NCBI GenBank assembly: GCA_041744215.1 | Contig: JBGTLG010000022.1 | Location: 14,247-78,246, forward strand | Length of the DNA stretch: 64,000 nucleotides | Source of the DNA: Fimbriimonadales bacterium | GTDB taxonomy: Bacteria > Armatimonadota > Fimbriimonadia > Fimbriimonadales > ATM1 | Direction: 5' to 3' | Shown: positions 30,155-64,000 of the stretch, in pieces | Layout: each line of letters starts with the position of its first letter | Numbering within the stretch: the stretch's first letter is position 1 | Program-made: the position numbers and the translations under genes | Notes under the pieces: generated by a model | What the model saw: the letters and a program-made list of their open reading frames with translations, nothing else | Told to the model about the DNA's origin: nothing | The model's database searches: none

Positions 30155-30328
30155 GAGAGGTGGCAATTATGGACGCTTGAGCCAAGAGCGCGGCGAATGA
30201 ATCAGGTAAGTGACGGCCGCCGCTTGGATGAACCACCAGGAAACGCCAGCAATCCGATCGAATCCACGCTTGCAATCGTGGTTCCCCGGTATCCTCGAAT
30301 CCTCACTCCCAAAAAATCGGTAACTCAT

Positions 30329-31891
30329 ATGCCCATGCAGCCGCAAGAAGAAATCGAAGTCCACATACGCGCCAGCTACCCGATCCTCTACGTCGTCACC
30401 TGGGAAGAAGAGCGCGTCTCGAACGCGATCTCCGAAATCGCCGACAGGGTCAAGCGACCCCGCAGGTCGTGGTCGCTCACGCAAGGCCTCAAGCCATCAG
30501 GCATCGACTCAGGACTTGAAAACACGCGCCTTCCCGCAGAAATCCAGGTTCTCACGCACATCCTCGGCGTAAAGGAACCCGCAATCTTCCAACTGAAAGA
30601 CTTTCATGCATACATGAGCGACTCCCGCGTCATCAGACTCCTTCGCGATGCCGCAAGCAAGCTGCGCAGCAAAAACCAAACGATTGTCATTACCGCGCCA
30701 ATTCTAAAACTTCCCCCAGAGCTCGAGAAAGATATCACCGTAGTCGAGTATCCGCTCCCTGACGTCAGCGAAATCGGAGAAGTCGTCGATGTCGCACTCG
30801 AGGCATGGAAAGGAAAGGACAGCGTCGATACAAACTTGTCGAAAGAAGATCGGGAACGCATCGTACAATCCTGCCTCGGCCTCACTCTCGACGAAATCGA
30901 ATCGGTACTCGCTCGCAGCCTCGTCGAAAAGAAGAAGCTTGACGTAAACGTCATCCTCGAACAAAAAAAGCAGATCGTTCGAAAGTCCGGCCTGCTCGAA
31001 TACTATCCCCCGCAAGAGAGCATGAAAGACGTCGGTGGAATGGAATACCTCAAAGACTGGCTGAAAAAACGCGCGTCCAGCTTCACACAGAAAGCCCGCG
31101 ATTTCGGTCTGCCTGCCCCGAAAGGCGTCCTCCTCCTCGGCGTCCAAGGCTGCGGCAAATCCCTGATCGCCAAAGCGATCGCCAACTCCTGGAACCTCCC
31201 CATGCTCCGAATGGACGTCGGCCGAATCTTCGGCAGCCTCGTCGGTCAAAGCGAAGAGAACATCCGCCGAGCAATCCGCGTCGCAGAGTCCGTCGCACCC
31301 TGCATCCTCTGGGCCGACGAACTCGAAAAAGGATTCGCCGGAACGCAAAGCAGCGGAGTAAGCGACGGAGGAACCACAGCGCGCGTTTTCGCAACATTCC
31401 TAACCTGGATGCAAGAGAAAACCAAACCAGTCTTCATGATCGCAACAGCAAACGACGTCACAAAACTCCCACCAGAATTGCTCAGAAAAGGTCGCTTTGA
31501 TGAAATCTTCTTTATCGATCTCCCAGACACAGAAGAAAGAAAAGAGATTTTCGCAATCCACCTAAACAAACGCAAACGCGACCCGAAAAACTACGATCTT
31601 GGTGCTTTGGCAAAAGCGACTGCGGGGTTCAGCGGCGCAGAAATCGAACAAGCGGTTATCGCAAGTTTGTTCTCTGCATTCGATGCAGGACGCGAACTCG
31701 CACAAGAAGACATGATGGACGAAGCGAAAAACGCGGTGCCGCTTAGCAGAATGATGGAAGAAGATATTCAAGAACTTCGCGATTGGGCAAAACTCCGAGC
31801 GAGGCCCGCAGGACACAACGACGACGAGAATCCACGCACGCCTGTCTTGGTGGGCGATGAGGGACTTGAACCCCCGACATCCTCCTTGTAA
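30329..31891 (+). CDS. AAA+ ATPase, Ycf46-like
   Basis: YPILYVVTWEEER, GVQGCGKS Walker A, DELEK Walker B, LPPELLRKGRFDE; 3' end overlaps antisense tRNA-Val. Confidence 0.88.
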   Translation: MPMQPQEEIEVHIRASYPILYVVTWEEERVSNAISEIADRVKRPRRSWSLTQGLKPSGIDSGLENTRLPAEIQVLTHILGVKEPAIFQLKDFHAYMSDSRVIRLLRDAASKLRSKNQTIVITAPILKLPPELEKDITVVEYPLPDVSEIGEVVDVALEAWKGKDSVDTNLSKEDRERIVQSCLGLTLDEIESVLARSLVEKKKLDVNVILEQKKQIVRKSGLLEYYPPQESMKDVGGMEYLKDWLKKRASSFTQKARDFGLPAPKGVLLLGVQGCGKSLIAKAIANSWNLPMLRMDVGRIFGSLVGQSEENIRRAIRVAESVAPCILWADELEKGFAGTQSSGVSDGGTTARVFATFLTWMQEKTKPVFMIATANDVTKLPPELLRKGRFDEIFFIDLPDTEERKEIFAIHLNKRKRDPKNYDLGALAKATAGFSGAEIEQAVIASLFSAFDAGRELAQEDMMDEAKNAVPLSRMMEEDIQELRDWAKLRARPAGHNDDENPRTPVLVGDEGLEPPTSSL

Positions 31892-31922
31892 GGGAGGCGC
31901 TCTACCACTGAGCTAATCGCCC
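31848..31922 (-). tRNA. tRNA-Val(TAC)
   Basis: Reverse complement GGGCGATTAGCTCAGTGGTAGAGCGCCTCCCTTACAAGGAGG...TCGCCCACCA. Confidence 0.95.
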
Positions 31923-31935
31923 ACAAGCCGCAATT

Positions 31936-33885
31936 CTACCGCTCGTCGCTTGCCTGCCGAAACTCAGACGGATAAATCAGCCTGCCATCCGATCCCGTAA
32001 AGTAGATCGTCGTTGGCCCAATCGCCTGCTGGTTGCGTGTCAGTTTGACGAGAAATCTTGTCCAATCCCTCGGCAAGAAGCTGAAAGAGTAAGGCTCCTC
32101 CGGCCGAGGCGCAGGCCGGTGCGTATCCTGATACCAATTCCGCTTTTCGCCATCGACCCAAACCACCTGCCCAACAGGCGAAGCAACAACCATCTTCACC
32201 ATGTCATCCGTCTCAAAACGCGCTTCCGTAGCCAAGTAAATCACGCCGGGCGCATTCACAAAAAACGCCTCGATATCAAAAACACAGCCGTCAAACAATC
32301 GACGCTCCCAACGCATCGGCAGCGCTGATCGGCCCGAAAAAACCTCATCCGCATTCATCCCTCTTTCAGGAGCGTAAACTTTTTCGTAACCCTCTTGCTC
32401 GCGATTGTCAAAAGGTCCGACACTCCACCAAACTTGCGGACGCAAAATCGGCGCGCGAACTTCGCCTCCATCCATGCGCATCGAAACATAACCGTCATCG
32501 CCCGACGCAACCGCGGCGATGTTTGCAACGCCCATCGCCTCAACACGAATCCGCGAACCGCGATGCGAAACCGCAACGCCTTCAGATCCAGAAATCTCCG
32601 GAACAACTTCAACCGGCGTATCACCAGGATTCTCGATTCGAAAACCAATCGAAAGCGGCTGCCCAAAATCCGAAACCACGCCATCAGGAAAACGAAACCC
32701 CGCAACCAAATCTCCAATCGCTTGCAAAGAAAGCAGCATCGGTTGCCGATGCAGCCGCGCAATCGCATCCGTCGCGCGCAAAAACGAACGATCAACACTC
32801 GCCTCGACAGAAGGCGCGCCCTCGCCCCCCCCTACATCAGCGACCGACTCATCGCCCCCCTCCCCGCCAGCCAAACTCGAATCCGCAACAGTAGATCCCC
32901 CATCGGAAAAACCAGAACCCCCACCCGATGAACCACCGCCCTCACCAGCCAAATCCCCACCCGAAGAACCCCCAACCGAAGACACAACAGCCAGCCCATC
33001 CAAAAACGCCCGACCAAGCCCCTCAAACCGCCCCACCAGCTTCTCCTCAAAACCCCCAGAATCCAAAACCCAATCCTCAGGCACAGCCCCCGCCCCCGCA
33101 GCCAAAACCGCCCCAGCGCACCCTCCCGCCGATACCGACCGGCCCCCGCAGCCCGCCGCCAAACAAACCGTCCGCCCAAAATCCCCGTCACCAAACAAAC
33201 AACCGATCAGCGCAAAAGCGTGAGTCGCAACAGCCTCGTCCGGCAGCTTCCCGCCGTCCCACCGAAGCGCGATCTCCCGAGCCTCCTGCCACGTCCGGCC
33301 GTCCCCCCATGCCTTGATCATCGCCGGCGATACCTTCCTAAGCTCCGAATCCGCAGGCAAAACGCCCTCGCCAATCTGCAAACACTCCGAAATCGACCCC
33401 GCAAACGGCGCAGCCGCAGCAGCAGCCGCCCAAAAACAAGCCGCCCAAACCCCCTCGCCCGAATGGTCGATCGTCGCGTCGTGCCATGCCCATGCCGCCG
33501 CCAAATCCGGCCGCCCAGCGAAAAGCAATCCCCAAAAAGGCCCGCGCCCCATCGCCCCACCATCATAAGAAAATGGGTTCTCAAAACTCCCCGAAAGCGG
33601 CGCCCTTAGCCCCCGTGAAACGTTCCCCAAAGCAAACCGCTGCGCGTCCTCCTTTAGCGGAAGCTCGCCATAAAGATCGCAAAGCCCATACTGATCCTTC
33701 GCCTGACGCAGATAAACCCGCGCCGCCAAAAATGGAAGCGTCTCACTGACCCCGTCCGGTATCGGCGTGTAAAAGGCGATGTTTCGCCAATCCGGCTTCC
33801 CGTCAAATGGCGCACCCAGCGTCGTCCCCGCCAACCAACCCCGCGCCCCCGCACGAACCTTCGCCGATACCTGATCATAGGACAT
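31936..33885 (-). CDS. Divergent ADP-ribosylglycohydrolase-family protein with Gly/Ser linker and C-terminal beta-sandwich domains
   Basis: GTTLGAPFDG, DATIDHSGEGVWAA, GDGDFGRTVCLAAGCG; acidic metal motifs not recognisable. Confidence 0.65.
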   Translation of the reverse strand: MSYDQVSAKVRAGARGWLAGTTLGAPFDGKPDWRNIAFYTPIPDGVSETLPFLAARVYLRQAKDQYGLCDLYGELPLKEDAQRFALGNVSRGLRAPLSGSFENPFSYDGGAMGRGPFWGLLFAGRPDLAAAWAWHDATIDHSGEGVWAACFWAAAAAAAPFAGSISECLQIGEGVLPADSELRKVSPAMIKAWGDGRTWQEAREIALRWDGGKLPDEAVATHAFALIGCLFGDGDFGRTVCLAAGCGGRSVSAGGCAGAVLAAGAGAVPEDWVLDSGGFEEKLVGRFEGLGRAFLDGLAVVSSVGGSSGGDLAGEGGGSSGGGSGFSDGGSTVADSSLAGGEGGDESVADVGGGEGAPSVEASVDRSFLRATDAIARLHRQPMLLSLQAIGDLVAGFRFPDGVVSDFGQPLSIGFRIENPGDTPVEVVPEISGSEGVAVSHRGSRIRVEAMGVANIAAVASGDDGYVSMRMDGGEVRAPILRPQVWWSVGPFDNREQEGYEKVYAPERGMNADEVFSGRSALPMRWERRLFDGCVFDIEAFFVNAPGVIYLATEARFETDDMVKMVVASPVGQVVWVDGEKRNWYQDTHRPAPRPEEPYSFSFLPRDWTRFLVKLTRNQQAIGPTTIYFTGSDGRLIYPSEFRQASDER

Positions 33886-33943
33886 ACACGGATTCTACTG
33901 ATCCTGAGAGGTCGCGGTTACGAATCCGATCCGATCTAGATCG

Positions 33944-36499
33944 CTAATGGGGGGTGGCCCGTTCATCTGCCGAGCCGTCATTTGGATAGGGAGGCATGTT
34001 TTCGATCACTCGACTTGCGTCGGCACGGGTGATCACGGTGTCGTATAGCCCAATCCCCTCTCCCTCGTGCTTGTCAACTCCTGTGTAGCGCAGGCTCGAG
34101 TCCTCATACCGCTTGAACTTGTACACAGCGTCGTTCATCAAGGCGCTGTTGAACAACCCCAGACTGACGAGTAGCTCAAAATCCTCGACGCTCAGCCCTG
34201 TCACCTTCCGAAAGAGACCAGGTTCTAGCTTGGTGATCACGTCGCGCAGCGTCCGCTCCCGGTAGTCGGTCATGTACATGAACACGGGAATCCGGGTCGC
34301 AAACTTGATCAGCTTCTCCTGAATCTCTTTGCGTTTCGACTTGGCTTCCTTCTCCTCCTCGCTCAGTTCCTTCTTGGTCTTCGGGTCGACGGTCTCGTCA
34401 TTCGCCGCCTTCTTCGCTTTCTTCACAGCTTCGGACTTGTTTATGATTGTCTCGATCTCCTGGTTCAAGCTGCGAAACCCCTCGATGTTCATCAATGCCT
34501 TCATGGCCGCCTCGTTGTCCATCAATCGTTTTAGGGTCTCGTTGTCCACGTTCACAAGTAATGCGCTCTCCCATCGACGGGCGAGCAGCGTAGCGGTCGT
34601 CCCGCTCATCGCCATGTCCAGGATGCCTGCTGCGTCGATTTGCCTCATTGAACTCCCATCGTAGGCGAGGACGGGCAGAAAGTCGATGAACTCGGCGACC
34701 TTCTTCTCCGGACTCACCTTTTCGTCCACATTCAGCCGACAGGCGATCTCCGAAATCTGCCGCAAGGCGCGGTCCGGAGCGAAGTCGAAAACGCAGCACT
34801 CCTCCTTGAGGATCACTTCCTCGTTGGGGCTCAATCCATCGGGATTCCAAACCGTCCAAGGCGACTGCACCCGAAACGCGGCCTGGAAGTAGGTTTCGGG
34901 GCTCGAGGAGTTCCGAAGCATGAGAATGCCTGTCCAGGGCCGCACGGTCACGCCCGTCGTCAGCTTGCCGCAGGTCAGCGTGATCGTCTTGGTCCTCAAA
35001 GGGTCGTCCATCTCGCGCAGGACGGGCTCGAGGGCCCGCACCCCCAGACCGGCTTCCGTGCCGGCGGCGACGATCACCTTGTAGTGGTGATAGTATCGGT
35101 TCCCCCGCTTCTTCAAGAGGTTGCTCATCGCGTGGCACGCGGCGACGCTCGGTAAGAACCACACAGTGTGCGACAACACCTCTAGGAGCCGCACGTCCGA
35201 GAAGGGCATCGGCGGCTTCTCAGCCCCGAGCTTTAGGTTGTCCACCGTCGCCGCCGCGAACGAGCCACGGATGAGGTCGAGCCACTTCTGGACCTCCTCC
35301 TCGTAGTTAAAGGTCGCCGTTGCTCCCCGCCCGCTCGCCGAGAAGAAAGCGTTGAGGTCGAATCCGTCGAACTCACCCCGCATCGCCACGTCTCTGATTT
35401 CATCGGGTAGTTGGTAGGTCATCAGCACCATGCGAGGCAGCGAGGCATAGGGGTTGTTTTCGCCCTTTCACTCTGACTTGGCCCGTTGCTCGTCAGTGTA
35501 GGTCCAGTTGAAGATCTGATCCTCGATGAACTCTCCCGACGCAATCGCCCGGAACGGCGTCCCTGAAAGATATAGGTAAGCCCTGGTCGTGATCGGCATC
35601 AGTCCTTCGTCGAAGTACTCGATCCCTTCGCCTTCCTCGAATGCAAGCTGCCCCTGGTCTTCGCCTTCGAAGAGGTCTTTGGCGTTCTCTCGCCAGGCCC
35701 CATAGTGGTACTCGTCAAAGACCACCAAGTCCCAGTTGATCGCGTGCACCCACTCGTTCTGCGTCTTGATTCCGCCGGTGCTCGGGTTTCGGCCGAGGTA
35801 GTCCTGGAACGACCCGAAGCAGACGAACGGTTTGCTCTGGTCTGCATCCTCGTAGCTCAGCCCACCTCGGACGATGAACTGCCATCCCTCGAAGTCGGTG
35901 TGCGTCTTGATGTCTTCTTCCCACGCGCTCTGGACGGCGGGCTTGAAAGTAAGCACCAGCACTCGCTTGAAGCCCATTTCTTGGGCGAGCTTGTAGGCCG
36001 CGAACGTCTTGCCAAACCTCATCTTCGCATTCCATAAGAAGTGAGGGGTCTTATCGGGCCGCTCCGAGATTGCCCGATTGAAGTAGTCGGCCGTCATCTT
36101 GACCGCCCCGGCCTGTTCCGGCCGCATGGGGAACGACCGAGTTCGATTCTCCTCATTCTCCTTACCATCCACCAGAGCCAAGATGGCGGCCCGCACGTCC
36201 TCGACGGAGCATCGGAACCACTCGCCTTCTGGGTTGAACGCTTCCTTCTTGCGCAGCACACGGTGCACGTCGCGGTCGCTAAAGGCACCGCCGTCGTTCC
36301 GCATCGCGGACTCCTCGAGCACAATCCGATAGGGCGGCTCGCCGGGCATCACGATGCTATAGATCTGCTTGAGCCTGGCTTCCGCTCCGAGAGTCGTGTA
36401 CCCGACCTTCAGCAGGCCCGCGTACTGGGGGTTCGTGTCCTCGTACGCATATATCGTCGGAGTGGCGGCTGGACGGGGGGGGAAGAATTTCTCTGGCAT
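33944..36499 (-). pseudogene. T5orf172/GIY-YIG-like plus SF2 helicase restriction subunit interrupted by one in-frame TGA (35468-35470)
   Basis: LLKVGYT...GEWF N-domain; KMRFGKT, DEYH, LSGTP; frame continues DEQRAKSE*KGENNPYASLPRMVLMTYQ into the 33944..35431 ORF. Confidence 0.8.
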
Positions 36500-36548
36500 G
36501 TGGTCTGCGAAGGTGCTATCTCAAGAGTAGCTCCGTACGGGTGACTTT

Positions 36549-38057
36549 CTAGGCGATCCTGAGTTTGATGTATCCCCACTCGTCCTCCGTGATCCCCCAT
36601 CGTTCAATGAGAAGTTCATCGCTAAAGGTCTCGTCGTAACAGGTTAAGTCTGGAATGAACTCAAAGCATCCTCTCGTCACATTCTGGGACACAACCCGCT
36701 GAAGTAGCAAGAATCGTACAGTCTTTGTAAGCAAGTATGACAAAAAGTTCTCGGCCTCTCGCCTCGTTTCGAACGCGCCCGCTACTAAGTATGTTTCATT
36801 GCACGCTTCCCCCGGTTCAGCCAAAATGACATTTCCGGCGTAGTAGAACGCAACTGGTTTGGAAAAGTCGGTCTGCCCTGCTATCGGAGCAAAGGGAATG
36901 AGCACTTTGTGCTTGCTCAACAATCCCTCCTCGCATTCGGAAATGCTGCTAGGTTCACAGAACCGACGGCCCGCCCGCTGAGCAAACCAGCACGGCGTTC
37001 CGCTGTCCAGCGGCATGTAGGTTGAAGGGATGCCAAAAGGTTGCCTGACAGATACTCTGCTGCTCAACCTCTTGCCTCCATTCTCATTCATGGCTAGAAC
37101 CTTACGAACAATTGGCAGAGCCTCGCCGCTCCTGATCAGCGTATCGAATTCATTCAGACGACGCTCAACGGTAACTAGGGATTCGCCGCTGACAGTTGTG
37201 AACGCGCATGTTCCTCGTTCGTCTCGGCACCAAAGAAAGTAGCAGATACCGCCCGCTATGTCCACCCCTGGGAAGACCTTGTCGGCTGCTTCAAAGTCGT
37301 GGATAGCACGCAGCCGATCATCCTGTAGCATTTCCTTACGAAAGTCATCCAGGCCCTTCCCGCCCGCAAACCACCGAGATGGGATGACCATAGTCAAGTA
37401 TCTCGGTAACAGTTTTTTCGCCTGCGAAACGAACCGATGATATATTGGTATAGCGCTTCTACCTGTACCTCCTCCGTCATTCAGTTGATACGGCGGGTTG
37501 CTCACGATCACGTCGAATTGCATCTCAAAGATCTCCTTTGGGTCAGTGGTGTGTATGAATCGGTAGGCATGGGTCTCCAATTCTTCGCTTCGGTCGTACG
37601 CGCCCTCGCCCGCGCCGCAGAATGTACATCTGCCATTCTGCCACGTATGCTCCATGCGGTCGAAGCGGATGTTGCCTTGCTCGTCCTGGAAGGCGGTGCA
37701 GACCGAGTATCCGCCGTTCGCGGTCTTGGAACAGTACACCGAACGGCGAGCGAGCAGAGCGGTCAGGTCGGTGATCGCGAGTCCGAAAACCTGCTTCGTC
37801 AGGATGTGGTCGATCCGCTTCTGGTGGTCGGGTATCGCTTCTTCAAGCCCTTCCACCAAACGTCGCGTGATCTCGCGGAGGAAAACGCCCGACTTACAAG
37901 CCGGATCCAGGAAGGTTGCTTTCGGGTCGCGCCAAATCTCCACCGGGAGCAGGTCCAGCACTCGGTTTGCCACCTCCGGCGGCGTGAATACCTCGTCGCT
38001 GCTCAGGTTGGCCAGGCACGTAAGAACGTCGGGGTTGTAATTTTCAGTCGTAGCCAT
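36549..38057 (-). CDS. Eco57I-like N6-adenine DNA methyltransferase with C-terminal target-recognition region
   Basis: EVFTPP, FLDPACKSG (motif I), VIVSNPPY (motif IV), IPSRWF. Confidence 0.9.
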   Translation of the reverse strand: MATTENYNPDVLTCLANLSSDEVFTPPEVANRVLDLLPVEIWRDPKATFLDPACKSGVFLREITRRLVEGLEEAIPDHQKRIDHILTKQVFGLAITDLTALLARRSVYCSKTANGGYSVCTAFQDEQGNIRFDRMEHTWQNGRCTFCGAGEGAYDRSEELETHAYRFIHTTDPKEIFEMQFDVIVSNPPYQLNDGGGTGRSAIPIYHRFVSQAKKLLPRYLTMVIPSRWFAGGKGLDDFRKEMLQDDRLRAIHDFEAADKVFPGVDIAGGICYFLWCRDERGTCAFTTVSGESLVTVERRLNEFDTLIRSGEALPIVRKVLAMNENGGKRLSSRVSVRQPFGIPSTYMPLDSGTPCWFAQRAGRRFCEPSSISECEEGLLSKHKVLIPFAPIAGQTDFSKPVAFYYAGNVILAEPGEACNETYLVAGAFETRREAENFLSYLLTKTVRFLLLQRVVSQNVTRGCFEFIPDLTCYDETFSDELLIERWGITEDEWGYIKLRIA

Positions 38058-38907
38058 AGGCGATCTCAAGATAATGCACCAGGGGGTAATCGCGAACGGG
38101 CTTCGGAATGAAGACCCTCTGCCCGGTATCGGAGATCAGCGGGGGTTCCGGCTGCGCGAAAAGCGACGCCTGATCCTCGCCGAACAACGACTTCTGGAGG
38201 TTGTCCAACATGAAGCGGGCCCCTTGGGGCTGGTCCGAGAGCAGCTCGTGAAAGGCGTACTCGCGTCGCTTGATCAGACTGCCGTTCATTGGAGACCACT
38301 CCGAGAAGACGATCGGCCCGGGGTCCGACCCAACCGTCTTAAGCGTCAGCGCGTCTCCCCAAACGATATTCCGCTCCAGGATGTACCGAACGCTCGCCCG
38401 AAAGGTCTTCTGAATTTTTCGATCGAATAACCTCAAATATTCGGCGTCCAGGCCATCGAATAGCACTTGGCGGCACGTCCGAGCGTTGCGATCCTGAATG
38501 TCAATGCCGTAGAGCGACGCCATCGCGACGATGGCGTTCCGTTCCCATTCGAGTTGGCTCTTGCGATAGCGGGTGGCGACGGTCGTGAGTTTGCGCCGCA
38601 GGACTTCGACTAGGAAGTTGCCGGTGCCGCACGCGGGTTCGAGGAAGCGCGATTCAATCCGCTCGGTTTCTTGCTTCACCAAGTCGAGCATAGCGTTCAC
38701 CTCGCGTGGTGCCGTCAGCACCTCGCCATACTCAGCAACCCTTTGCTTGCACCCGATCTGCACAACTGCAACTTCACCTGGTGGTTGTTCCAATTCGGTC
38801 GGCAAGCCGATTGGCTTAACACGCTTCTTGCTCAATTGGCCCGCGCGGACGATCGTGCCCTCCAGTTCAGCTGCCTTCGTCTGCTTCTCCTTACCCTTTC
38901 GAGCCAT
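38044..38907 (-). CDS. SAM-binding methyltransferase-like subunit lacking NPPY
   Basis: GEVLTAP, FLEPACGTGNFL, YGIDI, NIVWGDAL; no motif IV; start ATG 38907 is 8 nt after TAGAAT. Confidence 0.8.
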   Translation of the reverse strand: MARKGKEKQTKAAELEGTIVRAGQLSKKRVKPIGLPTELEQPPGEVAVVQIGCKQRVAEYGEVLTAPREVNAMLDLVKQETERIESRFLEPACGTGNFLVEVLRRKLTTVATRYRKSQLEWERNAIVAMASLYGIDIQDRNARTCRQVLFDGLDAEYLRLFDRKIQKTFRASVRYILERNIVWGDALTLKTVGSDPGPIVFSEWSPMNGSLIKRREYAFHELLSDQPQGARFMLDNLQKSLFGEDQASLFAQPEPPLISDTGQRVFIPKPVRDYPLVHYLEIAYGYD

Positions 38908-38922
38908 ATCCACCGATTCTAT

Positions 38923-38940
38923 TCGACGCAAACGCGTCGA
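38923..38940. promoter_or_regulatory. Palindrome immediately upstream of the R-M operon -10 box (possible operator)
   Basis: TCGACGC-AAAC-GCGTCGA next to TAGAAT (38916-38921, minus strand). Confidence 0.4.
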
Positions 38941-38958
38941 TTCCTCCCGCCCACCACA

Positions 38959-39111
38959 AGGTTGACATTCCGCCCTCCCAAAGACTTAACCGACGGAGCC
39001 CTTGCGCCAAAGCGAACGGGCAGGGAAACACCAACCCGCGACGCGCCGCAAGCCCCATGAACTCAAGACGCCGCGTTAACAATTAAAAACAGTGATGAGT
39101 TTGATGAGTCC
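38959..39111 (+). repeat. Bipartite non-coding element, copy 1
   Basis: Block A AGGTTGACATTCCGCCCTCCCAAAGACTTAACCGACGGA, 73-bp spacer, block B CCGCGTTAACAATTAAAAACAGTGATGAGTTTGATGAGTCC; inverted homolog at 62556-62707. Confidence 0.9.
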
Positions 39112-39192
39112 AGTGACTCCGATGACTCCGATGAGCCGACAACAGTAGCCAATCAAAACCCGTCAACCATCCCGGCCAAGACTCACGAAGAC

Positions 39193-39230
39193 AAAAAGAA
39201 AGCGGCGATCCGAAAACCTCGGATCGCCGC
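39193..39230 (-). terminator. Intrinsic terminator of the ECF sigma gene
   Basis: Perfect 12-bp stem GCGGCGATCCGA/TCGGATCGCCGC followed by a U-rich tract on the minus strand. Confidence 0.85.
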
Positions 39231-39251
39231 CAGAATCTCAGCCGCGTCTGC

Positions 39252-39824
39252 CTAAGCCGCAGCCGCCGCGGGCTCGACCACGCCCGCCAATTCGCGCTTC
39301 AAGAGCGCCCGCGCACGAAACAGCCAGCTCTTGATCGTCCCTTCAGGAGCGCCGACCCGCTCGGCGATCTCCTCGACGTCCATCATCTCGTAGTGGCGCA
39401 TCACGATGATCCGCCGATACCGCTCAGGCAACTTGCGGATAGCCTTCCGGATCACGCCCGCGAGCTCGCCGCGGAACGCCTCGTCCTCCGGCCGGTCCCC
39501 GCTCTCCAGCATGTGCTCATGCTGCTCAAGCGAATCGTGCCCTCGGTGCTTGCTCCGAACGATGTCCGTGCAAACGTTCGTGCAGATCCGATACAGCCAC
39601 GGCCGGATCGGCCGCGTCGTGTCGAACTCCTTCATCGACCGATGCGCCTTGACAAAAGTCGTCTGCGTCGCATCCGCTGCGTCGTCGCCGTTGCCCAGCA
39701 TCCGCAGGGCATGAGCGTAAACCACTCGGTAGTTCCGCTCGACGATCTCGTCGAACGCGTCGCGGCAGCCGCGTGCCGCGGCCATCGTCAGGGTCCTCTC
39801 GTTTTTTAGTTTTTTTACAGTCAT
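39252..39824 (-). CDS. ECF sigma-70 factor (RpoE/SigW-like)
   Basis: DAADATQTTF, WLYRICTN (region 2); EEIAERVGAPEGTIKSWLFRAR (region 4). Confidence 0.92.
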   Translation of the reverse strand: MTVKKLKNERTLTMAAARGCRDAFDEIVERNYRVVYAHALRMLGNGDDAADATQTTFVKAHRSMKEFDTTRPIRPWLYRICTNVCTDIVRSKHRGHDSLEQHEHMLESGDRPEDEAFRGELAGVIRKAIRKLPERYRRIIVMRHYEMMDVEEIAERVGAPEGTIKSWLFRARALLKRELAGVVEPAAAAA

Positions 39825-39873
39825 CTCTTTTTCCTCCCACCCTCCCTGGGTGAGGGGTTGAAGATATTATGCA

Positions 39874-39959
39874 TAAGAATGTGAAGGTGTAGGTTAAGAA
39901 TCCTGATGGTTTGGGGCCAAAGTCCTTACGAGATCATAAGGTCTTGACTAAGAATCCTG
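39874..39959. promoter_or_regulatory. Direct repeats and palindrome in the divergent sigma/hmgA promoter region
   Basis: TAAGAATCCTG at 39895 and 39949, TAAGAAT at 39874, CCTTA-N8-TAAGG between them. Confidence 0.45.
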
Positions 39960-40007
39960 GCAAACTTGTCCTCTGCGATATAATCCGGAGGCCAAAGGAG
40001 CCAAAAA

Positions 40008-41165
40008 ATGCCTCGATACGTTCAACTCGGAAAAGTCCCCGGCAAGCGCCACACCGCCTTCCGTAAGCCCGACGGAGGTCTCTACTCGGAGCAACTCCTG
40101 GGCGTCCACGGTTTCTCCGGCCTCCAAAGCATCACCTACCACATCAACATGCCCACCCGCGTCGCCGGCTGGGAGCCGAAGGGACGGGTCGCGCCCGAAT
40201 TCCTCGCCCACGAACCCCTCCGCCACCGCCACCTGAAGACCCGCCTCATGAAGCCGTGCGGCGACCCAATCAGCGGCCGCATCGCTCTCATGGGCAACAG
40301 CGACGTCATCTGGCACCAGATTTTTCCCGCCGAGCAGATGGATTACTTCTTCAAGAACGCCGACGGCGACGAGCTTTACTTCATGCACGACGGCAGCGGC
40401 ATCCTCGAGTCGATGTACGGCGATGTTCCTTACAAGCCTGGCGACTACATCGTTGTTCCGAGAGGAACGGTTTACAAGATCCGGATGGACGAAACGCCGC
40501 AGCGAATGATCGTTCTTCAATCGGCCGGCCACATCGAGATTCCGAAGCGGTACCGCAACAACTATGGGCAGCTGCTTGAGCACGCTCCGTATTGCGAGCG
40601 GGATATCCATCCTCCGAGCGAGTTGAAAACCCACGACGAGAAGGGCGATTTCCGCGTGCTCGTTCGGGCGCGGGGCGACTTGACGGAGTACCACTACGAC
40701 TATCATCCATTCGATGTTGTCGGATGGGACGGCTATGTTTATCCGTGGACGTTCAACATAAGCGACTTCATGCCGATCACGGGAAAGGTGCATATGCCGC
40801 CACCCATCCACCAGACCTTCGAAGCAAACAACTACGTCGTTTGCTCATTCTGTCCGCGAATGCTCGACTATCACCCCGACGCAATCCCGGTGCCATACGT
40901 CCACTCGAATATCGACAGCGATGAGGTTTTGTATTACGTGAATGGCAATTTCGGCTCCCGAAAAGGAATCGAAGAAGGCTCGATCACGCTCCATCCCCTT
41001 GGTATTCCGCATGGCCCGCAACCCGGCATCGCCGAAGCATCGCTTGGCGCGACCAAGACGGAAGAACTGGCTGTCATGGTTGACACTTTCCATCCGCTCA
41101 TGCTCACAAAGGAGGCCGTTTCGCTCGAAGACGACACCTATTGGAAGAGCTGGAAACCCGAGTAA
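40008..41165 (+). CDS. hmgA: Homogentisate 1,2-dioxygenase
   Basis: NADGDEL, HPFDVVGWDG, HMPPPIH, HSNIDSDEVLYY, HPLGIPHGP. Confidence 0.93.
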   Translation: MPRYVQLGKVPGKRHTAFRKPDGGLYSEQLLGVHGFSGLQSITYHINMPTRVAGWEPKGRVAPEFLAHEPLRHRHLKTRLMKPCGDPISGRIALMGNSDVIWHQIFPAEQMDYFFKNADGDELYFMHDGSGILESMYGDVPYKPGDYIVVPRGTVYKIRMDETPQRMIVLQSAGHIEIPKRYRNNYGQLLEHAPYCERDIHPPSELKTHDEKGDFRVLVRARGDLTEYHYDYHPFDVVGWDGYVYPWTFNISDFMPITGKVHMPPPIHQTFEANNYVVCSFCPRMLDYHPDAIPVPYVHSNIDSDEVLYYVNGNFGSRKGIEEGSITLHPLGIPHGPQPGIAEASLGATKTEELAVMVDTFHPLMLTKEAVSLEDDTYWKSWKPE

Positions 41166-41216
41166 GTCGCACAAAACGGATATAATCGGCGGTCGGTTCC
41201 CCGTAAGGAAAAACTA

Positions 41217-41663
41217 ATGGCCGCACCCTATCGCCTGCTGATCGTCGATGACGAAGAAGACGTCCGGATTGCCGTCAAGCGCCGCCTCGAACGCCAAGGC
41301 TTCGAGGTGGATACCGCTGACAGCGCCGAGGCGGGGATTGAGTGCATCCAAACGGTAGAGGAGCCCTACGACGTCATCGTCACCGACATGAGCATGGAAG
41401 ACCCGGAAGCAGGGGTCCAGATACTCCAAGCTGCCTTTGGTCGTGATGTGTTCGCGGAAGTCATCGTCATGACTGCGTATGGCAACGTCAAAAACGCTGT
41501 CGAATGTATGAAGCGCGGTGCGTTCGATTACATCGAAAAGAACATCCCGGGTGTCGACGTTTACGAACTGTTGACGATTAAGATCGAACAGGCTCTCGAC
41601 CGCAGGCGCCAAAGCGTTAGCGCAGTTAAGTCTTGGGATCGAACGACGGGAGCGAGGACGTAG
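41217..41663 (+). CDS. Single-domain response regulator
   Basis: [25 protein letters not shown]. Confidence 0.92.
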
Positions 41664-41727
41664 CTCGGTTGACTGCTGGCGATTGACGAGGCTCGACAAT
41701 CGGCAGCCGTCAAACGCGAATCGAATC

Positions 41728-43560: not shown

Positions 43561-43602
43561 CGACCTCCAGATCAGGGATTACTCTCAGACGCAGCCGGAA
43601 TT

Positions 43603-43629
43603 GGGCGAATTGGAAACCAATTGCCCTTT
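43603..43629 (+). terminator. Possible terminator hairpin after lepA
   Basis: GGGCGAATTGG-AAA-CCAATTGCCC followed by TTT. Confidence 0.5.
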
Positions 43630-43713
43630 GCCGGGTGTATAGTCGGGAGGTCTTCAGTCCCACACTCCAGGCATATCTGTCCTGGAAACGGGTATTCCAT
43701 TTCACACAGGGCT

Positions 43714-45734: not shown

Positions 45735-45741
45735 AGTCCGG

Positions 45742-48483: not shown

Positions 48484-48485
48484 GG

Positions 48486-48929: not shown

Positions 48930-48940
48930 CGAGTCGGATT

Positions 48941-48970: not shown

Positions 48971-48996
48971 TGGCCGGCGTGAGGGAAAATGCCTTT

Positions 48997-54134: not shown

Positions 54135-54489
54135 TCGGCCCAACTATCCGCCGGAGCAAGCCGAGAACCAGGCCCATGAGCAAGCTTCCGACCAGGGCGC
54201 CCCAGAAGTCTCCTACCTGATAGCCTAGCTCCCACGTACCGACTAGCCAGAACAGCAGCGCATTGATGAGGACCCAGGCGAGGCCGAAGGTAAGGCATGC
54301 AAGCGGCGCAGTCAGGAGCCGCAGCACACTGCCGAGTGTAGCGTTGATGAGGCCAAGCACAGCCGTGCCCAACAGAACTTTGAGCGGCTCGTCCGTGTGA
54401 ACCTGGACGTCAAAACCGAGTGCTGCGGCGATGAGCGCAGAGACGACGAGGCTGATTGCGCTTATGATCCAGTAGATGAGCAGGCGCAT
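54121..54489 (-). CDS. YvlD-like four-TM membrane protein (phage holin family IV-like)
   Basis: LGLINA...LLTAPL..LTFGL...INALLF; adjacent to yvcK. Confidence 0.8.
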   Translation of the reverse strand: MRLLIYWIISAISLVVSALIAAALGFDVQVHTDEPLKVLLGTAVLGLINATLGSVLRLLTAPLACLTFGLAWVLINALLFWLVGTWELGYQVGDFWGALVGSLLMGLVLGLLRRIVGPNAPK

Positions 54490-54552
54490 TACCCACCATT
54501 GTATTCCCGAATACGCTTGACTTGCAGGTGCCTCCGGGCTAAACTCCCCTCT

Positions 54553-59521: not shown

Positions 59522-59536
59522 ACTTTTGACTTCAGT

Positions 59537-60067
59537 ATGGAAATCGTCGTACCCGCAGAGTATCAGGTCCTTTGGGAGACCAATGACCAACGGCCGGTTG
59601 TGAAGTATCCGGCCGACGTCTTGCGTCAGGTCGCATCGCCCGTCGAGCGTGTGAACAAAGATACGCGCCGATTGATTGAGCGGATGTCGAAGATCATCAA
59701 GCAGGCTAATGGAGTTGGACTTGCGGCGCCACAGGTGGGTGTTGCTGAGCGGGTGATTCTCGTTTCGCCGAGCGGGCGCGAGGCTTTCGCTTTAGTCAAC
59801 CCGGAGATCACTCTCCGCGAAGGCGAGGTCGTCGCCCAAGAAGGCTGCCTAAGTTTGCCGGGTTTGTACGGCGATGTGAAGCGCAGTGCGATTGTCGAGG
59901 TCAGAGCCCTTGATCCGGAAGGGAAATCTGTAAAGTACCGATTTGAAGGCTTGGGCTCTCGAGTTGTGCAACATGAAATCGATCACCTCGACGGCGTGCT
60001 GTTCATAGACAAAGTGGATGTGGCAACTCTGCACTGGGCATGGCCGATGGGGAGCGACGCAGACTAG
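59537..60067 (+). CDS. def: Peptide deformylase
   Basis: GVGLAAPQ, EGCLS, QHEIDHLDG. Confidence 0.97.
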   Translation: MEIVVPAEYQVLWETNDQRPVVKYPADVLRQVASPVERVNKDTRRLIERMSKIIKQANGVGLAAPQVGVAERVILVSPSGREAFALVNPEITLREGEVVAQEGCLSLPGLYGDVKRSAIVEVRALDPEGKSVKYRFEGLGSRVVQHEIDHLDGVLFIDKVDVATLHWAWPMGSDAD

Positions 60068-60990
60068 TGCGTCTTGTTTACTTCGGCACGAGCGAGTTCG
60101 CGGTGCCCGCGCTCAAGTTGCTCGCGGACGACATCGTTCTCGTGGTGACTCAGCCAGATCGTCCCGCAGGGCGAGGACGGAAGATGCGTGCTTCTCCAGT
60201 GAAACAAGCTGCGCAAGCGCTGGGCCTGGTTATCGAGTCACCAGAATCTGCGAAAGATCCCGCGTTCATTGCGCGCGTTCAATTGACGAGCTCGGACGCG
60301 CTTGTCGTTGCGAGCTACGGACAAATTCTCAAGGAGTCTTTGTTGAGTGCCGCGGTGCGCGGCGGAATCAATTTGCATGCATCGATCCTGCCAAAGTATC
60401 GTGGCGCGGCACCGGTGCAGCGCGCGGTGCTGGCAGGTGAGCAGGAGACAGGGGTGACGCTCATGCAGATGGACAAAGGGATGGACACGGGAGACATCAT
60501 CGCAATTGAGAGAACTCGAATTGACCCGGATGAGAGCGCAGGCGAGTTGGAAGCGCGCCTCGCTGTGATTGGAGCGAACATGACTAAACACTGGCTGCCG
60601 CTGATCGTTGCGGGCGGTTACGAGCGCACACCGCAGAACAACAGCGAAGCTACGCTTGCGCCGAAAATGACGCGAGACGACGGTGAACTGCGCTTCGACA
60701 CTGACGCTGTGGCTGCTTACAACCGATTTCGAGCCGCCACGCCAAGGCCTGGAGCATGGATGGACACGCGGTTCGGGCCCGTCCGAACACACAGTGCGCG
60801 ACTCGCGGCCGACTTGATCGGACATCCCGGCGAGGTCATCGCTGTAGACGACTCGGGGCTTGTTGTTGCGTTCATAGCTGGTTCACTCCGACTCATCGAA
60901 GTTCAGCCTGGTGGAAAGTCGCGAATGTCGGCGCTTGACTTTGCGAATGGGCATCGAATCGAGCCAGGAAGCACACTTGCTGCGAAATGA
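60067..60990 (+). CDS. fmt: Methionyl-tRNA formyltransferase
   Basis: FGTSEFA, VVTQPDRPAGRG, NLHASILPKYRGAAP; GTG overlaps def stop. Confidence 0.96.
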   Translation: MRLVYFGTSEFAVPALKLLADDIVLVVTQPDRPAGRGRKMRASPVKQAAQALGLVIESPESAKDPAFIARVQLTSSDALVVASYGQILKESLLSAAVRGGINLHASILPKYRGAAPVQRAVLAGEQETGVTLMQMDKGMDTGDIIAIERTRIDPDESAGELEARLAVIGANMTKHWLPLIVAGGYERTPQNNSEATLAPKMTRDDGELRFDTDAVAAYNRFRAATPRPGAWMDTRFGPVRTHSARLAADLIGHPGEVIAVDDSGLVVAFIAGSLRLIEVQPGGKSRMSALDFANGHRIEPGSTLAAK

Positions 60991-61199
60991 AGCGGGCTTT
61001 GGAACCGGATGTGCTAAAAAAGTACGCATCCACAATCGCCTGCTGAATCCGGTTTGTTCAAGAAGTGGGAAGTAATCAAAAAAAGAAGAAATTTTTTTTT
61101 CTTTTTGTAGCCAGGTCTCCAGGAACTTGATTTTTGGCAATTCTGTTTACCAAAGGTTGCAGTTGCGCCAGGATTGATGCGGGGATTCTTGTCGAAAAT

Positions 61200-61240
61200 T
61201 GTCAACCCCCTTGACAGTTGGTTAGCATAGTCGGTACATT
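61200..61240 (+). promoter_or_regulatory. Sigma-70 promoter with perfect palindrome over the -35
   Basis: TGTCAA-CCCCC-TTGACA; TTGACA-N18-TACATT; AT-rich tract upstream. Confidence 0.65.
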
Positions 61241-61246
61241 GACTCT

Positions 61247-61395
61247 CGTACCCCGCCGTACACCGAATACAACTAAGTGAGCAAGTGAGGAGGCGACGTA
61301 CCTCGGTGACAACGGCAACGCATTTCATCCCTCCTCACCGCATGCCCCGGCGCGACCCCTCATCCCGACCTCCCCAGCGCCGGGGCGCTTACTTT
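61247..61395 (+). ncRNA. Candidate small RNA (~150 nt)
   Basis: Between the promoter and a 10-bp GC hairpin with T-rich tail; second stem GTGAGGAGG/CCTCCTCAC; no convincing ORF. Confidence 0.55.
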
Positions 61396-61436
61396 AAGCC
61401 CCTTGTGCTGATCCGCTTTCAGGGATAATCCTCGAT

Positions 61437-62477
61437 ATGTTCGCGGTTTGCGCTCTGCTCGCTATGCTGGTTCCGGCGCAAGCGCCTGAAGGCGCTTTGT
61501 TTCCCGTCGTCTCGGGCCAGAAATGGGGATTCATCGATGCGCGTGGCGAGGTGGTGATTGCTCCGCAGTTTGAGGCGGCGCGGGAGTTTCGCGGTAGCTT
61601 GGCGCCGGCGATGAAGGGAAGCCGGTGGGGCTTCGTGAACCGGTCGGGCGCGTGGGTTGTTCCTCCCAGCTACAGCAATGTCGGAGACTTTCGCGAGGGG
61701 CTGGCGGCCGTGGTTCAGGGGGAACAGGTCGGCTTCGTCAATACCTCCGGTCAGGTCGCTATCCGCCCGATTTTGCCGTGGCCGGTGGCGGATCCCCCTT
61801 ACATTCCGTCGTTCTCGGAAGGCCTTGCCGGAGTTGTCGTTGAGGCCGGGGATCAGCGGTTCGCTTGGGGTTACATCGACAAGGCGGGAAACCGAGCATT
61901 CGACGGTACTTTCACTTATGGGGGCGAGTTCTCAGAAGGTCTTGCGGCCGTGGCGGTTGGTCCGGAGTCTTGGGGGTACGTGGATCGGACCGGAAAGATC
62001 GTGATCGAGCCCAAGTTCAGCTACGCGGGCACATTCCAGAATGGGCTTGCGCCGGTGGTCGTCGCGTCGAAGTTTGGCTACATCGACAAGACCGGGACTC
62101 TCGTGATCCCGAACCGTTATTCGGACGCGCTGGAGTTCAGCGAAGGGTTTGCCCTTGTGTTGGAGGGCGAGAAGTATAAAGTTATCGATACGCAAGGCAA
62201 GCAGGCGTTTGCGAAGTCCTTCGCAGAGGTCGACCCTTTGGCGCTTGAGTTGTTTAGGTTTTCTGAAGGGATGCTTGTTTTTGTTGAAGAGAGCGCAGAT
62301 GGGGAATACCTTTGGGGTTATGTCGATCGAACTGGCAGGGTAGCGATTCCTGCGAAGTTTCAGTACGCTGGGCGATTCCACGGCGGCCTCGCGGCGGTGA
62401 CGGTCCGCCGGGGGGACGACTACTTGGATGGGTACATCGATCGGACCGGTCGGTACGTTTGGCAGCCGAGCAAGTAG
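61437..62477 (+). CDS. Secreted WG-repeat (KWG-type) protein
   Basis: Repeated WGY/FID..G...I.P.F......FSEGLA units; signal peptide. Confidence 0.92.
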   Translation: MFAVCALLAMLVPAQAPEGALFPVVSGQKWGFIDARGEVVIAPQFEAAREFRGSLAPAMKGSRWGFVNRSGAWVVPPSYSNVGDFREGLAAVVQGEQVGFVNTSGQVAIRPILPWPVADPPYIPSFSEGLAGVVVEAGDQRFAWGYIDKAGNRAFDGTFTYGGEFSEGLAAVAVGPESWGYVDRTGKIVIEPKFSYAGTFQNGLAPVVVASKFGYIDKTGTLVIPNRYSDALEFSEGFALVLEGEKYKVIDTQGKQAFAKSFAEVDPLALELFRFSEGMLVFVEESADGEYLWGYVDRTGRVAIPAKFQYAGRFHGGLAAVTVRRGDDYLDGYIDRTGRYVWQPSK

Positions 62478-62555
62478 TGACTCACGTGGGTCTTGCGATT
62501 TGATGCGCTGAATTGGTGGCCATGTTGCTTGACCTGGTTCGTGGCGAATTGTTAG

Positions 62556-62707
62556 GGACTCATCGAACTCATCACTGTTTATTATTGTTAACGCGGTCTT
62601 TTGAACTCGCTGGATTAGATGGGTGATGCGGTGCGAGTGGCTCGGGCGCGTTCCGTTATGCATGAGAGTTCCGTCGGTTAAGTCTTTGGAGAGCCGAAAG
62701 TCAACCT
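62556..62707 (-). repeat. Bipartite non-coding element, copy 2 (inverted relative to copy 1)
   Basis: Block B matches copy 1 at 38/41; block A core CCAAAGACTTAACCGACGGA matches 20/20; 73-bp spacer. Confidence 0.9.
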
Positions 62708-62761
62708 GTTGTTAGATTGCGAGCCAGATCGGCCGTCTTGGCTGAGATGGGATGCTGCCCT

Positions 62762-62832
62762 GTGCCGTTCACGGTCAGATTCTTCTGGCGTATCACGTCT
62801 CTGGAAGGAACTGAAGAACCTGTCCGTGGCAC
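62762..62832. repeat. Imperfect intergenic hairpin (REP-like)
   Basis: GTGCC(GTTC)ACGGTCAGATTCTTC ... GAAGAACCTGTCCGTGGCAC. Confidence 0.4.
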
Positions 62833-62863
62833 CCGGCGAACCAACTGTTCGACCTTTCCTGGG

Positions 62864-63373
62864 TTAGTGTTCGTGGCGGGAGAAAACCACGAGGTCGCCG
62901 CTGTGGACGGTGCCATCGAACGTGAAGGTCTGGTTGTGCTTGTCCACGAAACTGACGCGGATTAAGTCCGGCGGGTTGTGGGGCGTGTGATGCGGATTGC
63001 GCCGATCGACCACTCTGGCGGTGACAGTCCCGTGCACTGTTTGGAGGTGGCCGTCGACCTGTCTAGTTAGGGAGCCAGGGCCGGAGAAATCGCAAACGCC
63101 GCCTTTGGTGCCGCTAACGAAGGAGGGACGGCCCATCTCGACGAGTACCCATGGCCCGTGGTGATTGTGGTGCTGCTCAAGCCGAAGGGAGCCCTCGAAT
63201 GCCGGGTGGTGACCGTCAGCGGTGCGCTTGACGACGGAGAAGTGGAACGAACCGTTGCGCCCATCGTGGGTGGTGGCGGTCCCGGTCCCGTGAGATCCGA
63301 TGGCGAGGATATGGTTAGCAGCCGCCAGGGCGGCAAAGCAAAAGACCGAAAGGAAACAGAGTTTTTTGAGCAT
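62864..63373 (-). CDS. Secreted His-rich beta-strand protein of unknown function
   Basis: Signal peptide MLKKLCFLSVFCFAALAAA; His clusters QHHNHHG, NPHHTPHN, RHEH. Confidence 0.7.
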   Translation of the reverse strand: MLKKLCFLSVFCFAALAAANHILAIGSHGTGTATTHDGRNGSFHFSVVKRTADGHHPAFEGSLRLEQHHNHHGPWVLVEMGRPSFVSGTKGGVCDFSGPGSLTRQVDGHLQTVHGTVTARVVDRRNPHHTPHNPPDLIRVSFVDKHNQTFTFDGTVHSGDLVVFSRHEH

Positions 63374-63593
63374 GTTCAACCCTCTTGCCATTTTGACACC
63401 AATAAACCCGTCGGGGTTCCAGCTAGTGCTGGAGAGAGCAGCAAGGGCAATGAAGCGGACAATCTGGTTCGCGTTTTCAGGGTTGCTCGCCGTGGTCCTC
63501 GGCGGGTGCCCCGGGTGGGAACGAGGAGCTTTCGTTCGGGGTGGCCGGGGCAAATCTCGCGGCAGATAACGTCGCGTTGCGCAAGACTCCCAA

Positions 63594-63837
63594 CGCGGAT
63601 TTGCCCCTGAATGTCATCGCGTTCTCATTAGAGGGCAGGTATCAACTCGCAGCACGAAGTCGCGCGTTCCGTGATACCATCGCGTACTTCAAAGTTGACC
63701 ACGAATCTTGCGTGATGACGTCTGTTTGATGCGCCTCATGATGTTGGGGTTGTCGTAAACGTCCGCGCGTGACCCGGTTCATTGAATCGCACATCCGCCC
63801 ATGATACGAGGCGGAAGAACTCAGGGGCAAGTCCGCG
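63594..63837. mobile_element. Miniature element/IS remnant with terminal inverted repeats
   Basis: CGCGGATTTGCCCCTGA ... TCAGGGGCAAGTCCGCG (16/17 match); no transposase inside. Confidence 0.5.
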
Positions 63838-64000
63838 ATAGGAGACAATCGTACATCGGAGCTAATCCCCACGAGACTTGAAGGCTGTCGCGCGGGGATG
63901 CTTGTTTGGGTGTGATTTCGTCTCTATTTCATGGCACGTCACAATCGAAGATCTGTCGCTGCTTTTTTGAGCGGTCCCGGATCAACTGCCGTTCAGCCGC

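Follow-up and report, generated by a model that had tools for sequence, protein, structure and literature searches.

In the parts of the describing paper that we compared, the regions of intense strand skew known as GRINS are defined as duplicated regions that share >80% DNA identity with another copy and are propagated by gene conversion (PMC8256042). Within them GC and TA skew correlate at r = 0.70, versus 0.09 outside, under thresholds of >0.15, and Gly, Val, Cys and Trp are enriched on the G/T side; the same parts mention single-copy regions of intense skew in passing and leave the mechanism open (PMC8256042, 2021). A literature search found no later mechanistic work on GRINS, the matches, judged from the listings, being all on polyketide or peptide synthases. 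Here we describe an intense-skew tract in a 64,000-nt stretch of the draft genome of a Fimbriimonadales bacterium (G000; assembly GCA_041744215.1, 42 contigs, 2.68 Mb, 93% complete). The whole stretch (C22:14247-78246, contig JBGTLG010000022.1) is called the window. The tract abuts a strain-specific restriction-modification (R-M)/defence island, at whose opposite edge lies a copy of a dispersed repeat, the element, present in the window as two inverted copies (copy 1 and copy 2). On balance, we favour the reading that the tract is one of about 14 single-copy, GRINS-like, strand-specific mutational footprints at the edges of islands, left by what would be a one-way process, and that it is not a chromosomal origin. 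Positions without a prefix are those of the window; contigs of G000 are named C3, C4, C6, C15, C22 and so on, and L-numbers denote local loci.

The segment 30301-33900 exceeds the skew levels that delimit GRINS (>500 bp with both skews >0.15) in the parts of the paper compared, with a mean GC skew of -0.22 and a mean TA skew of -0.29 in 150-nt windows. It holds the most amino/keto-skewed DNA of the genome, with skew per window expressed as (A+C-G-T)/length: rank 1/17,772 among 300-bp and rank 1/5,286 among 1-kb windows, and a peak of 0.59 against a genome standard deviation (sd) of 0.082 for 300-bp windows. On the + strand, GC skew is -0.31 and AT skew +0.27 to +0.29 in the 1-kb windows of 32001-34000, and the two reach -0.58 and +0.67 in the 300-bp window 32900-33199; a preliminary description of this DNA had reported a C/A-rich + strand toward 33.9 kb, and the top ranks of these windows bear it out. 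Resolved by codon position as keto1, keto2 and keto3, i.e., (G+T-A-C)/n at codon positions 1, 2 and 3 of the coding strand, the most skewed gene of the tract, which is ADP-ribosylglycohydrolase-like, has values of 0.36, 0.02 and 0.58, compared with a genome-wide keto3 of 0.005 +/- 0.118 over 2,192 open reading frames (ORFs). The skew is of mutational origin, seen in codon positions 3 and 1 and not in position 2. One DNA-strand sign extends across both gene orientations: this gene on the - strand and the convergent AAA+ ATPase gene on the + strand (keto3 -0.46) both render the + strand C/A-rich, and the earlier statement that coding-strand bias is not responsible holds. By eye, the ADP-ribosylglycohydrolase-like protein looks rich in Gly, Val, Ala, Phe and Trp. 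Amino acid composition or the Gly/Ser linker was rejected as the cause, because second codon positions are unskewed and the AAA+ ATPase gene has the same DNA-strand sign; it covers only part of the 32.8-33.1 kb peak, which the linker sharpens without explaining it. The ORFs of the tract are intact and carry Pfam domains.

A scan of the whole genome in 400-bp windows yielded 14 intense-skew tracts of 1.2-3.6 kb each, lying mostly over housekeeping-type resident genes and occurring with both signs. Between adjacent genes, keto3 referred to the + strand correlates at r = 0.42 for same-orientation pairs (n = 1339) and at r = 0.36 for opposite-orientation pairs (n = 807), and where one member of an opposite-orientation pair is strongly skewed the sign is shared in 24/33 cases. 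The autocorrelation of skew between genes is gone by 40-60 kb. Since opposite-orientation pairs correlate and the correlation vanishes over such distances, the skew is a property of the DNA strand within short domains, and not of genes or replichores. An intensification of replichore skew was rejected: the sign of the tracts matches the contig-scale sign in C25 and C15 and not in C16 and C4. A repeated polar motif was likewise discarded as driver, as no k-mer is enriched (largest z about 4 for 4-mers and <3 for 6-mers). BLAST of the 14 tracts against the genome returned one non-self hit, so that 13/14 are single-copy. The only duplicated piece, in the C24 tract, is a 373-bp pair of 88% identity (C24:22826-23198 / C15:228267-228639), its C15 member some 100 nt from a full-length element copy, on the upstream side. 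The window itself showed no direct repeats. Among the six loci where a tract is linked to an element, proteins show no homology except for one pair of ECF-type sigma factors, and tracts as paralogous units were rejected for this lack of homology; the two sigma factor genes (window 39252-39824 and L004:356-886; 31% identical) lie a few kb from element copies. One independent contig, from a public run that may be of the source sample, covers 27500-41500 with 0 differences and a low-depth contig of a second run bridges the tract/island junction at 33798-34048; an assembly chimera was rejected on the strength of these contigs.

The tracts are best ordered by the edges of strain-specific DNA. At the six element-linked loci (6/6), the element and about 5-6 kb of adjoining DNA are absent or replaced in the sister genome, G001, and the tract starts exactly at the boundary (Table 1). 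In the window, synteny of the two genomes stops at 33921, where the sister carries a different R-M pair (ResIII + N6_N4 methylase). Aligned on their boundaries, the six loci have a mean skew of -0.23 to -0.31 for about 2 kb that tails off by about 4 kb, and toward the island the profile is flat; no mirrored tract was found on the other side of these islands. Compared with the sister genome, five of the eight other tracts have, on the side that their sign predicts, an island or a breakpoint (C3, C6-18k, C35 with a 4.8-kb island, C30 and, ambiguously, C24), none of the eight has a breakpoint on the wrong side only, and the C37 tract sits at a contig end. The better correlate of the skew is the edge of strain-specific DNA and not the element: read 5'->3', the G/T-rich strand leads outward from that edge. 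This rule also holds in another genus, where a tract of G003 (L038, G003:C3:58400-61200) over the NAD kinase orthologue, with a keto3 of +0.54, has a sharp edge where synteny with both G000 and G001 ends. The skew phenomenon recurs independently in the family.

How, then, does the element relate to the skew? Six of the 14 tracts (C22, i.e., the window, C4, C6, C15, C25 and C33) lie 5-8 kb upstream of an element copy, and all six are C/A-rich on the element's own strand, which is the predicted sign. Random placement of the 29 elements gave a mean of 0.35 linked tracts and a maximum of 4 in 20,000 trials, compared with the six observed. The element sits at the opposite edge of the six islands with its 3' end against conserved DNA, and it is because of this placement that the sign of the skew follows its orientation. 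The earlier proposal that the sign does so was right for both window copies and all six linked tracts, but a strong tract 5-8 kb upstream accompanies only 6 of 29 copies, and it does not extend to the immediate surroundings: once the sequence of the element itself is left out, the flanking 2 kb are ordinary, both upstream (n = 20, mean -0.014, p = 0.18) and downstream (n = 29, mean -0.014, p = 0.17). Equally strong patches lacking an element are common, as 8/14 tracts have none within reach and no degenerate copies were found near them; one of the strongest lies at 55.8-58.0 kb of C16. The sister genome, moreover, has the window tract (500-bp values of -0.25, -0.33 and -0.18), and no element was found in 32 kb around it. 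A causal role of the element in the skew is not supported; of the suggestion of polar sites that expose one strand, the polar footprint on one DNA strand stands, and the assignment of that role to the elements does not. Two weaker patches by the window copies, noted in the preliminary description, shrank on inspection. Past copy 1, at 38.95-40.4 kb, a C/A-rich patch is present and mild, with GC skew of only -0.10 to -0.23 and an AT peak that is the element itself; 1-kb skew values beyond the copy are -0.09, and the ECF-type sigma factor and homogentisate-dioxygenase-like genes there have element-strand keto3 of -0.21 and -0.17. Around copy 2, the + strand is G/T-rich as described (GC skew +0.20, AT skew -0.17 at 62001-63000), at about 3 sd and in a window that includes the copy's own C/A-rich tail.

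The preliminary description further suggested that the elements may be polar sites or the two unidirectional halves of a split replication origin, with initiation at the switch from C-rich to G-rich near 41 kb, which we consider extremely improbable. In the window, cumulative GC skew is lowest near 41 kb, the two copies are inverted, and their A/T-rich stretch with 4-6 tandem 9-bp units looks iteron-like; however, the 41-kb switch coincides with a change from - to + genes, the skew has the same sign on both sides of copy 1, and the tract is one-sided with no mirrored sign across the island. Nor do the ordinary flanks of the element fit an origin, or the tract in the sister genome that has no element; 14 tracts cannot all be origins, and skew autocorrelation is gone by 40 kb. 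As had been correctly noted, the window contains no dnaA gene and no cluster of DnaA boxes (10 near-boxes versus 6.5 +/- 2.5 expected, none of them at 28.8-49.3 kb). The dnaA gene is at 41.1 kb of C40 and dnaN is on C33, and the dnaA neighbourhood on C40 is likely to be the true origin region. Two genes just upstream of dnaA (G000:C40:38478-40717) form a domain of moderate skew, with + strand keto3 values of +0.33 and +0.36. Local skew switches such as that at 41 kb are not origins in such genomes.

Comparison of orthologues suggests how the skew arose. In the AAA+ ATPase gene of the window tract, keto3 is -0.46 in G000, -0.35 in the sister and -0.09 to -0.15 in seven other genomes of the family. 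Genes of other tracts show a similar rise: TatD has 0.61 in G000, 0.31 in the sister and -0.06 to +0.10 in the others, and an M14 peptidase 0.60, 0.33 and -0.08 to +0.07, respectively. For NAD kinase, the value of G000 is +0.48 and that of the sister -0.04 (G006, -0.17; G010, +0.09; G005, -0.01; G003, +0.54). At the C15 locus, G000 has the island together with a strong tract, and G001 has no island and hardly any tract; the C33 tract is common to both genomes, each with its own, different island there. Read on the G/T-rich strand, changes polarised to the G000 branch numbered 30 for C>T, 24 for G>T and 12 for C>G, and no other type exceeded 3. In pairwise comparison, every change toward G or T is favoured by about 3:1. 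These counts are rough, as third positions are near saturation. The sequence comparisons show recent, lineage-specific drift at silent and conservative sites toward G and T of one strand.

The start at an edge, the decay over 2-4 kb, the fixed polarity, the build-up between sister genomes and the recurrence in another genus together argue for a directional single-strand process tied to island turnover. Such a process would recurrently start at, or pass, the island edge and move outward for a few kb, so that the strand leaving the edge 5'->3' would stay single-stranded or be freshly made. Recombination-dependent synthesis as islands turn over and synthesis primed by R-loops would be candidates, as would strand displacement of the rolling-circle or transfer type; by its polarity, the marked strand could be displaced, nascent or non-template, or could serve as the template of lagging-strand synthesis. 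Single-stranded DNA deaminates and depurinates faster when heated, in keeping with the changes C>T, A>G, G>T and A>T. The sequencing runs that hold this DNA carry the label hot-springs metagenome, and in a hot-spring organism such heat damage to the exposed strand, by deamination and depurination, could yield C>T, A>G and purine>T. On this reading, the islands would be too young to show skew. Resection of double-strand breaks was rejected on sign, as the surviving, 3'-ended strand would run toward the break, opposite to what is observed, and absence of uracil-DNA glycosylase was dismissed as the cause, since two genes of that family are present. As for markers of conjugation, no PF03432 relaxase was found in the 93% complete genome, where other relaxase families were not searched, and two weak TraG-D_C matches both lie away from the tracts.

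Several points weigh against this interpretation. An island crossed by such a process ought to be skewed as well, and the youth of the islands is an assumption. Two of the 14 tracts (C16 and C6-62k) have neither island nor breakpoint, and the looser adjacencies, those within 1.3 kb, lose weight because G000 and G001 differ by many breakpoints. In the random-placement test of elements and tracts, the distance window was picked after the data had been seen. Polarisation of changes by parsimony is rough, because third positions of the two genomes are near saturation, and the asymmetries of C>G (66 versus 23) and A>T (26 versus 5) go beyond simple deamination. The tracts are no more diverged than their flanks (80-82% identity between G000 and G001 in the window tract versus 74% in the adjacent LeuRS region), which speaks for a changed bias and not for a raised mutation rate. 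Finally, the G/T-rich strand is the coding strand in 24 of 29 tract genes, whose reading direction leads away from the edge; this also fits a cause based on transcription.

In that case, transcription units starting at the island edge would expose their non-template strand to R-loop mutagenesis, deamination would turn it G/T-rich, and read-through would mark convergent neighbours. The window tract begins just upstream of the ADP-ribosylglycohydrolase-like gene, at a short upstream stretch conserved with the sister genome, where by our own reading a -10-like TAGAAT marks a putative promoter; the C16 tract coincides with an NAD kinase/TPR gene pair, and a length of 2-4 kb suits transcripts. The third-position skew nevertheless tracks the DNA strand, opposite-orientation neighbours correlating positively on the + strand (r = +0.36) and negatively on the coding strand (r = -0.37), and its genome-wide mean on the coding strand is only 0.005. 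A cluster of ribosomal-protein and elongation-factor genes, presumably the most transcribed, has keto3 values of only -0.21 to +0.12, and three genuine genes inside tracts have strongly C/A-rich coding strands (NERD helicase, -0.54; amidase, -0.47; AAA+ ATPase, -0.46). Given this evidence, we regard transcription as a rather unlikely source of the skew.

The higher identity within the window tract could also be taken as a sign of import, in which donor DNA came in with successive islands by homologous recombination and the tract displays the composition of another lineage or of repeated passage by transfer. Sharp edges at synteny and island boundaries would agree with such an origin, as would a length of 2-4 kb, which resembles that of recombination tracts, and the presence of different islands at the same site in G000 and G001. 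Orthologues of graded identity occur, however, everywhere they were sought (the AAA+ ATPase in 31/31 genomes; NAD kinase, TatD and M14 peptidase in 5/5), the skew rises stepwise from other genera through the sister to G000, and import alone explains neither the strand polarity nor the one-sidedness. Imported flanks are, in our view, improbable.

Returning to the directional single-strand process, a bolder version, which we hold to be doubtful, is that islands of this lineage repeatedly fire one-way strand displacement of the rolling-circle or transfer type, in six cases from the element, that crosses the island and spills a few kb into the adjoining chromosome, the tracts being a heat-amplified "exhaust trail" on the displaced strand. 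If true, skews of the GRINS type would in general record where single strands are exposed, in one direction, at the edges of mobile DNA, and sequence by itself would suffice to tell from such tracts which islands are active and which way they run.

Table 1. Features of the window and tract boundaries at the six element-linked loci (boundaries outside the window on their own contigs or local loci)
Feature	Position	Strand	Remarks
AAA+ ATPase gene	29927..31840	+	third positions C/A-rich on coding strand
Intense-skew tract	30200..33921	.	+ strand C/A-rich, - strand G/T-rich; sharp edge at 33921, fading toward 30.2 kb
tRNA-Val(TAC)	31848..31922	-	between convergent ADP-ribosylglycohydrolase and AAA ATPase genes
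ADP-ribosylglycohydrolase-domain gene	31936..33885	-	649 aa, Gly/Ser-rich linker; Pfam PF03747, E 9e-19
Tract boundary, window (C22)	33921		island with R-M genes
Strain-specific R-M/defence island	33922..38955	-	no skew; flat profile
Island ORF	33944-35431	-	495 aa, no family
Island ORF	35468-36499	-	T5orf172 domain
Island ORF	36549-38069	-	Eco57I-type methylase
Island ORF	38044-38931	-	295 aa, overlapping previous ORF; only start of MmeI-type methylase domain
Element copy 1	38956..39140	+	5'-truncated core, model positions 80-235; GGTTGACA via CGCGTTAACAAT to five 9-bp tandem units (GATGAGTYC-like)
Mildly C/A-rich region past copy 1	39252..41165	.	ECF-type sigma factor gene (-) and homogentisate-dioxygenase-like gene (+)
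WG-repeat gene next to copy 2	61437..62477	+	+ strand moderately G/T-rich, keto3 +0.24; below tract criteria
Element copy 2	62527..62890	-	full length; inverted relative to copy 1; 1.2 kb from contig end
Tract boundary, C25	86450
Tract boundary, C33	L004:9655		island with SLFN-type helicase, HNH nuclease, DUF2726
Tract boundary, C15	L005:11018		island with AAA_25 protein
Tract boundary, C6	L001:9107		island with DDE transposase
Tract boundary, C4	2279		island with MmeI-like enzyme

Some features of the window call for comment. The R-M island is possibly a decayed or split type IIG-like system. The long ORF of the AAA+ ATPase (29927-31891) extends into the opposite-strand tRNA-Val gene (overlap 31841-31891), and its N-terminal ~130 codons lie over the LeuRS gene. 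The real gene probably falls short of this ORF at either end, conservation starting at about 30334. A 229-aa ORF at 62864-63553, immediately upstream of copy 2, has a signal-like hydrophobic stretch and His-rich segments and matches no Pfam or NCBIfam family.

The element family comprises 39 nhmmer hits, corresponding to about 29 copies in G000 of ~270-400 nt each. In alignments, a left hairpin with an 11-bp stem is followed by GGTTGAC(T/A), by CGCGTTAACAAT and an A/T-rich stretch, and then by 4-6 tandem 9-bp units, a second CGTTAACAAT and GTCAACC. The alignment displays the left hairpin and the GGTTGAC...GTCAACC pair, and no clear terminal inverted repeats. BLAST of the element against the 31 genomes of the family comparison set matched 5/31 overall: 22 matches fell in G000 and one weak, partial match in G001, and three further genomes matched only the first ~37 nt of the query, a piece of upstream flank outside the element core. 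Many dispersed, intergenic copies between unrelated genes and a restricted lineage distribution are the traits of a mobile repeat family, and the near-restriction to G000 suggests that the element may be mobile. Copies lie at or near the ends of C14, C15, C21, C24, C25, C26, C32 and C37, mostly with the 5' end toward the contig end, so the repeat probably breaks short-read assembly and the true copy number may be higher. Both of two full-length solo copies checked have G000-specific DNA on their 5' side. A conserved second island end was not found by nhmmer --max or short BLAST. A structured RNA was rejected, as no conserved structure emerged from RNAalifold on 27 copies (-1.9 in sense, 0.0 in antisense) and the only Rfam families at gathering score in the window were 5 tRNAs.

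No cognate transposase was found linked to the element, and no HUH/Rep transposase was seen in the islands. Three Y1 (IS200/RAYT-type) transposase genes (C18:1147-1431, C15:48-371 and C4:108247-108444) occur in the genome, none adjoining an element; two are at contig ends and one has an internal stop. In the C15 island, the AAA_25 (RepA/DnaB-like) gene at L005:14189-15367 (G000:C15:92189-93370) ends inside a partial element copy, and the C-terminus of its protein, made of Asp/Glu/Ser repeats, is encoded by the 9-bp tandem units of the element. The tail of the element may be derived from, or be read as, the 3' end of such a replication-type gene.

Among known systems, the element resembles IS91/ISCR-type elements and MITE/REP-like repeats in its single conserved end, its variable cargo of ~5-6 kb, its many short solo copies, the lack of a conserved second end and the breaks that its copies cause in the assembly. 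It differs from IS91/ISCR in that no HUH/Rep transposase is seen in the islands, Y1 genes are not adjacent, and terminal inverted repeats or target duplications are not established.

Clusters of changes from break-induced replication or kataegis reflect directional damage to one strand by a DNA end, with the nascent or displaced strand running away from the start. The tracts are similarly one-stranded, clustered, directional and next to a junction. Such clusters, however, are single events with tens of mutations, whereas the silent sites of the tracts are near a new equilibrium that is partly common to the sister species, a composition for which a recurrent or continuous process is needed. In the skew between leading and lagging strands and in that of the mitochondrial heavy strand, G+T are in excess on the strand that is single-stranded for longer, at third positions and irrespective of gene orientation. 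The tracts share this base signature. They differ from replication skew in strength, with keto3 of up to 0.7 versus a few percent over 10-kb windows of this genome, in extent, with 1.2-3.6 kb and not a replichore, and in location, at about 14 loci of both signs unrelated to dnaA.

The closest likeness is to GRINS, within the limits of the parts of PMC8256042 compared. GC and TA skew correlate at r = 0.73 inside the 14 tracts versus -0.02 outside, a value inflated by the pooling of tracts of both signs (r = 0.49 within the window tract), and mean absolute skews are 0.22 for GC and 0.27 for TA. As in GRINS, the skew is strongest at third codon positions, the proteins look functional, and there is a link to mobile or defence DNA. 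Unlike GRINS, 13/14 tracts have no second copy; they keep one sign over 1.2-3.6 kb, whereas GRINS flip sign abruptly within 1 kb, and they span unrelated genes of both orientations, begin at island edges and fade with distance. A rule of edge and polarity was not found in the main-text parts compared (PMC8256042). In the flanks of islands, the silent-site composition of housekeeping genes can be reshaped enough to distort predictions based on codon usage and of horizontal transfer. What this genome adds to known GRINS is the single-copy state of its tracts, the start at an island edge, the decay over 2-4 kb, the fixed strand polarity, the build-up between sister species and the recurrence in another genus.

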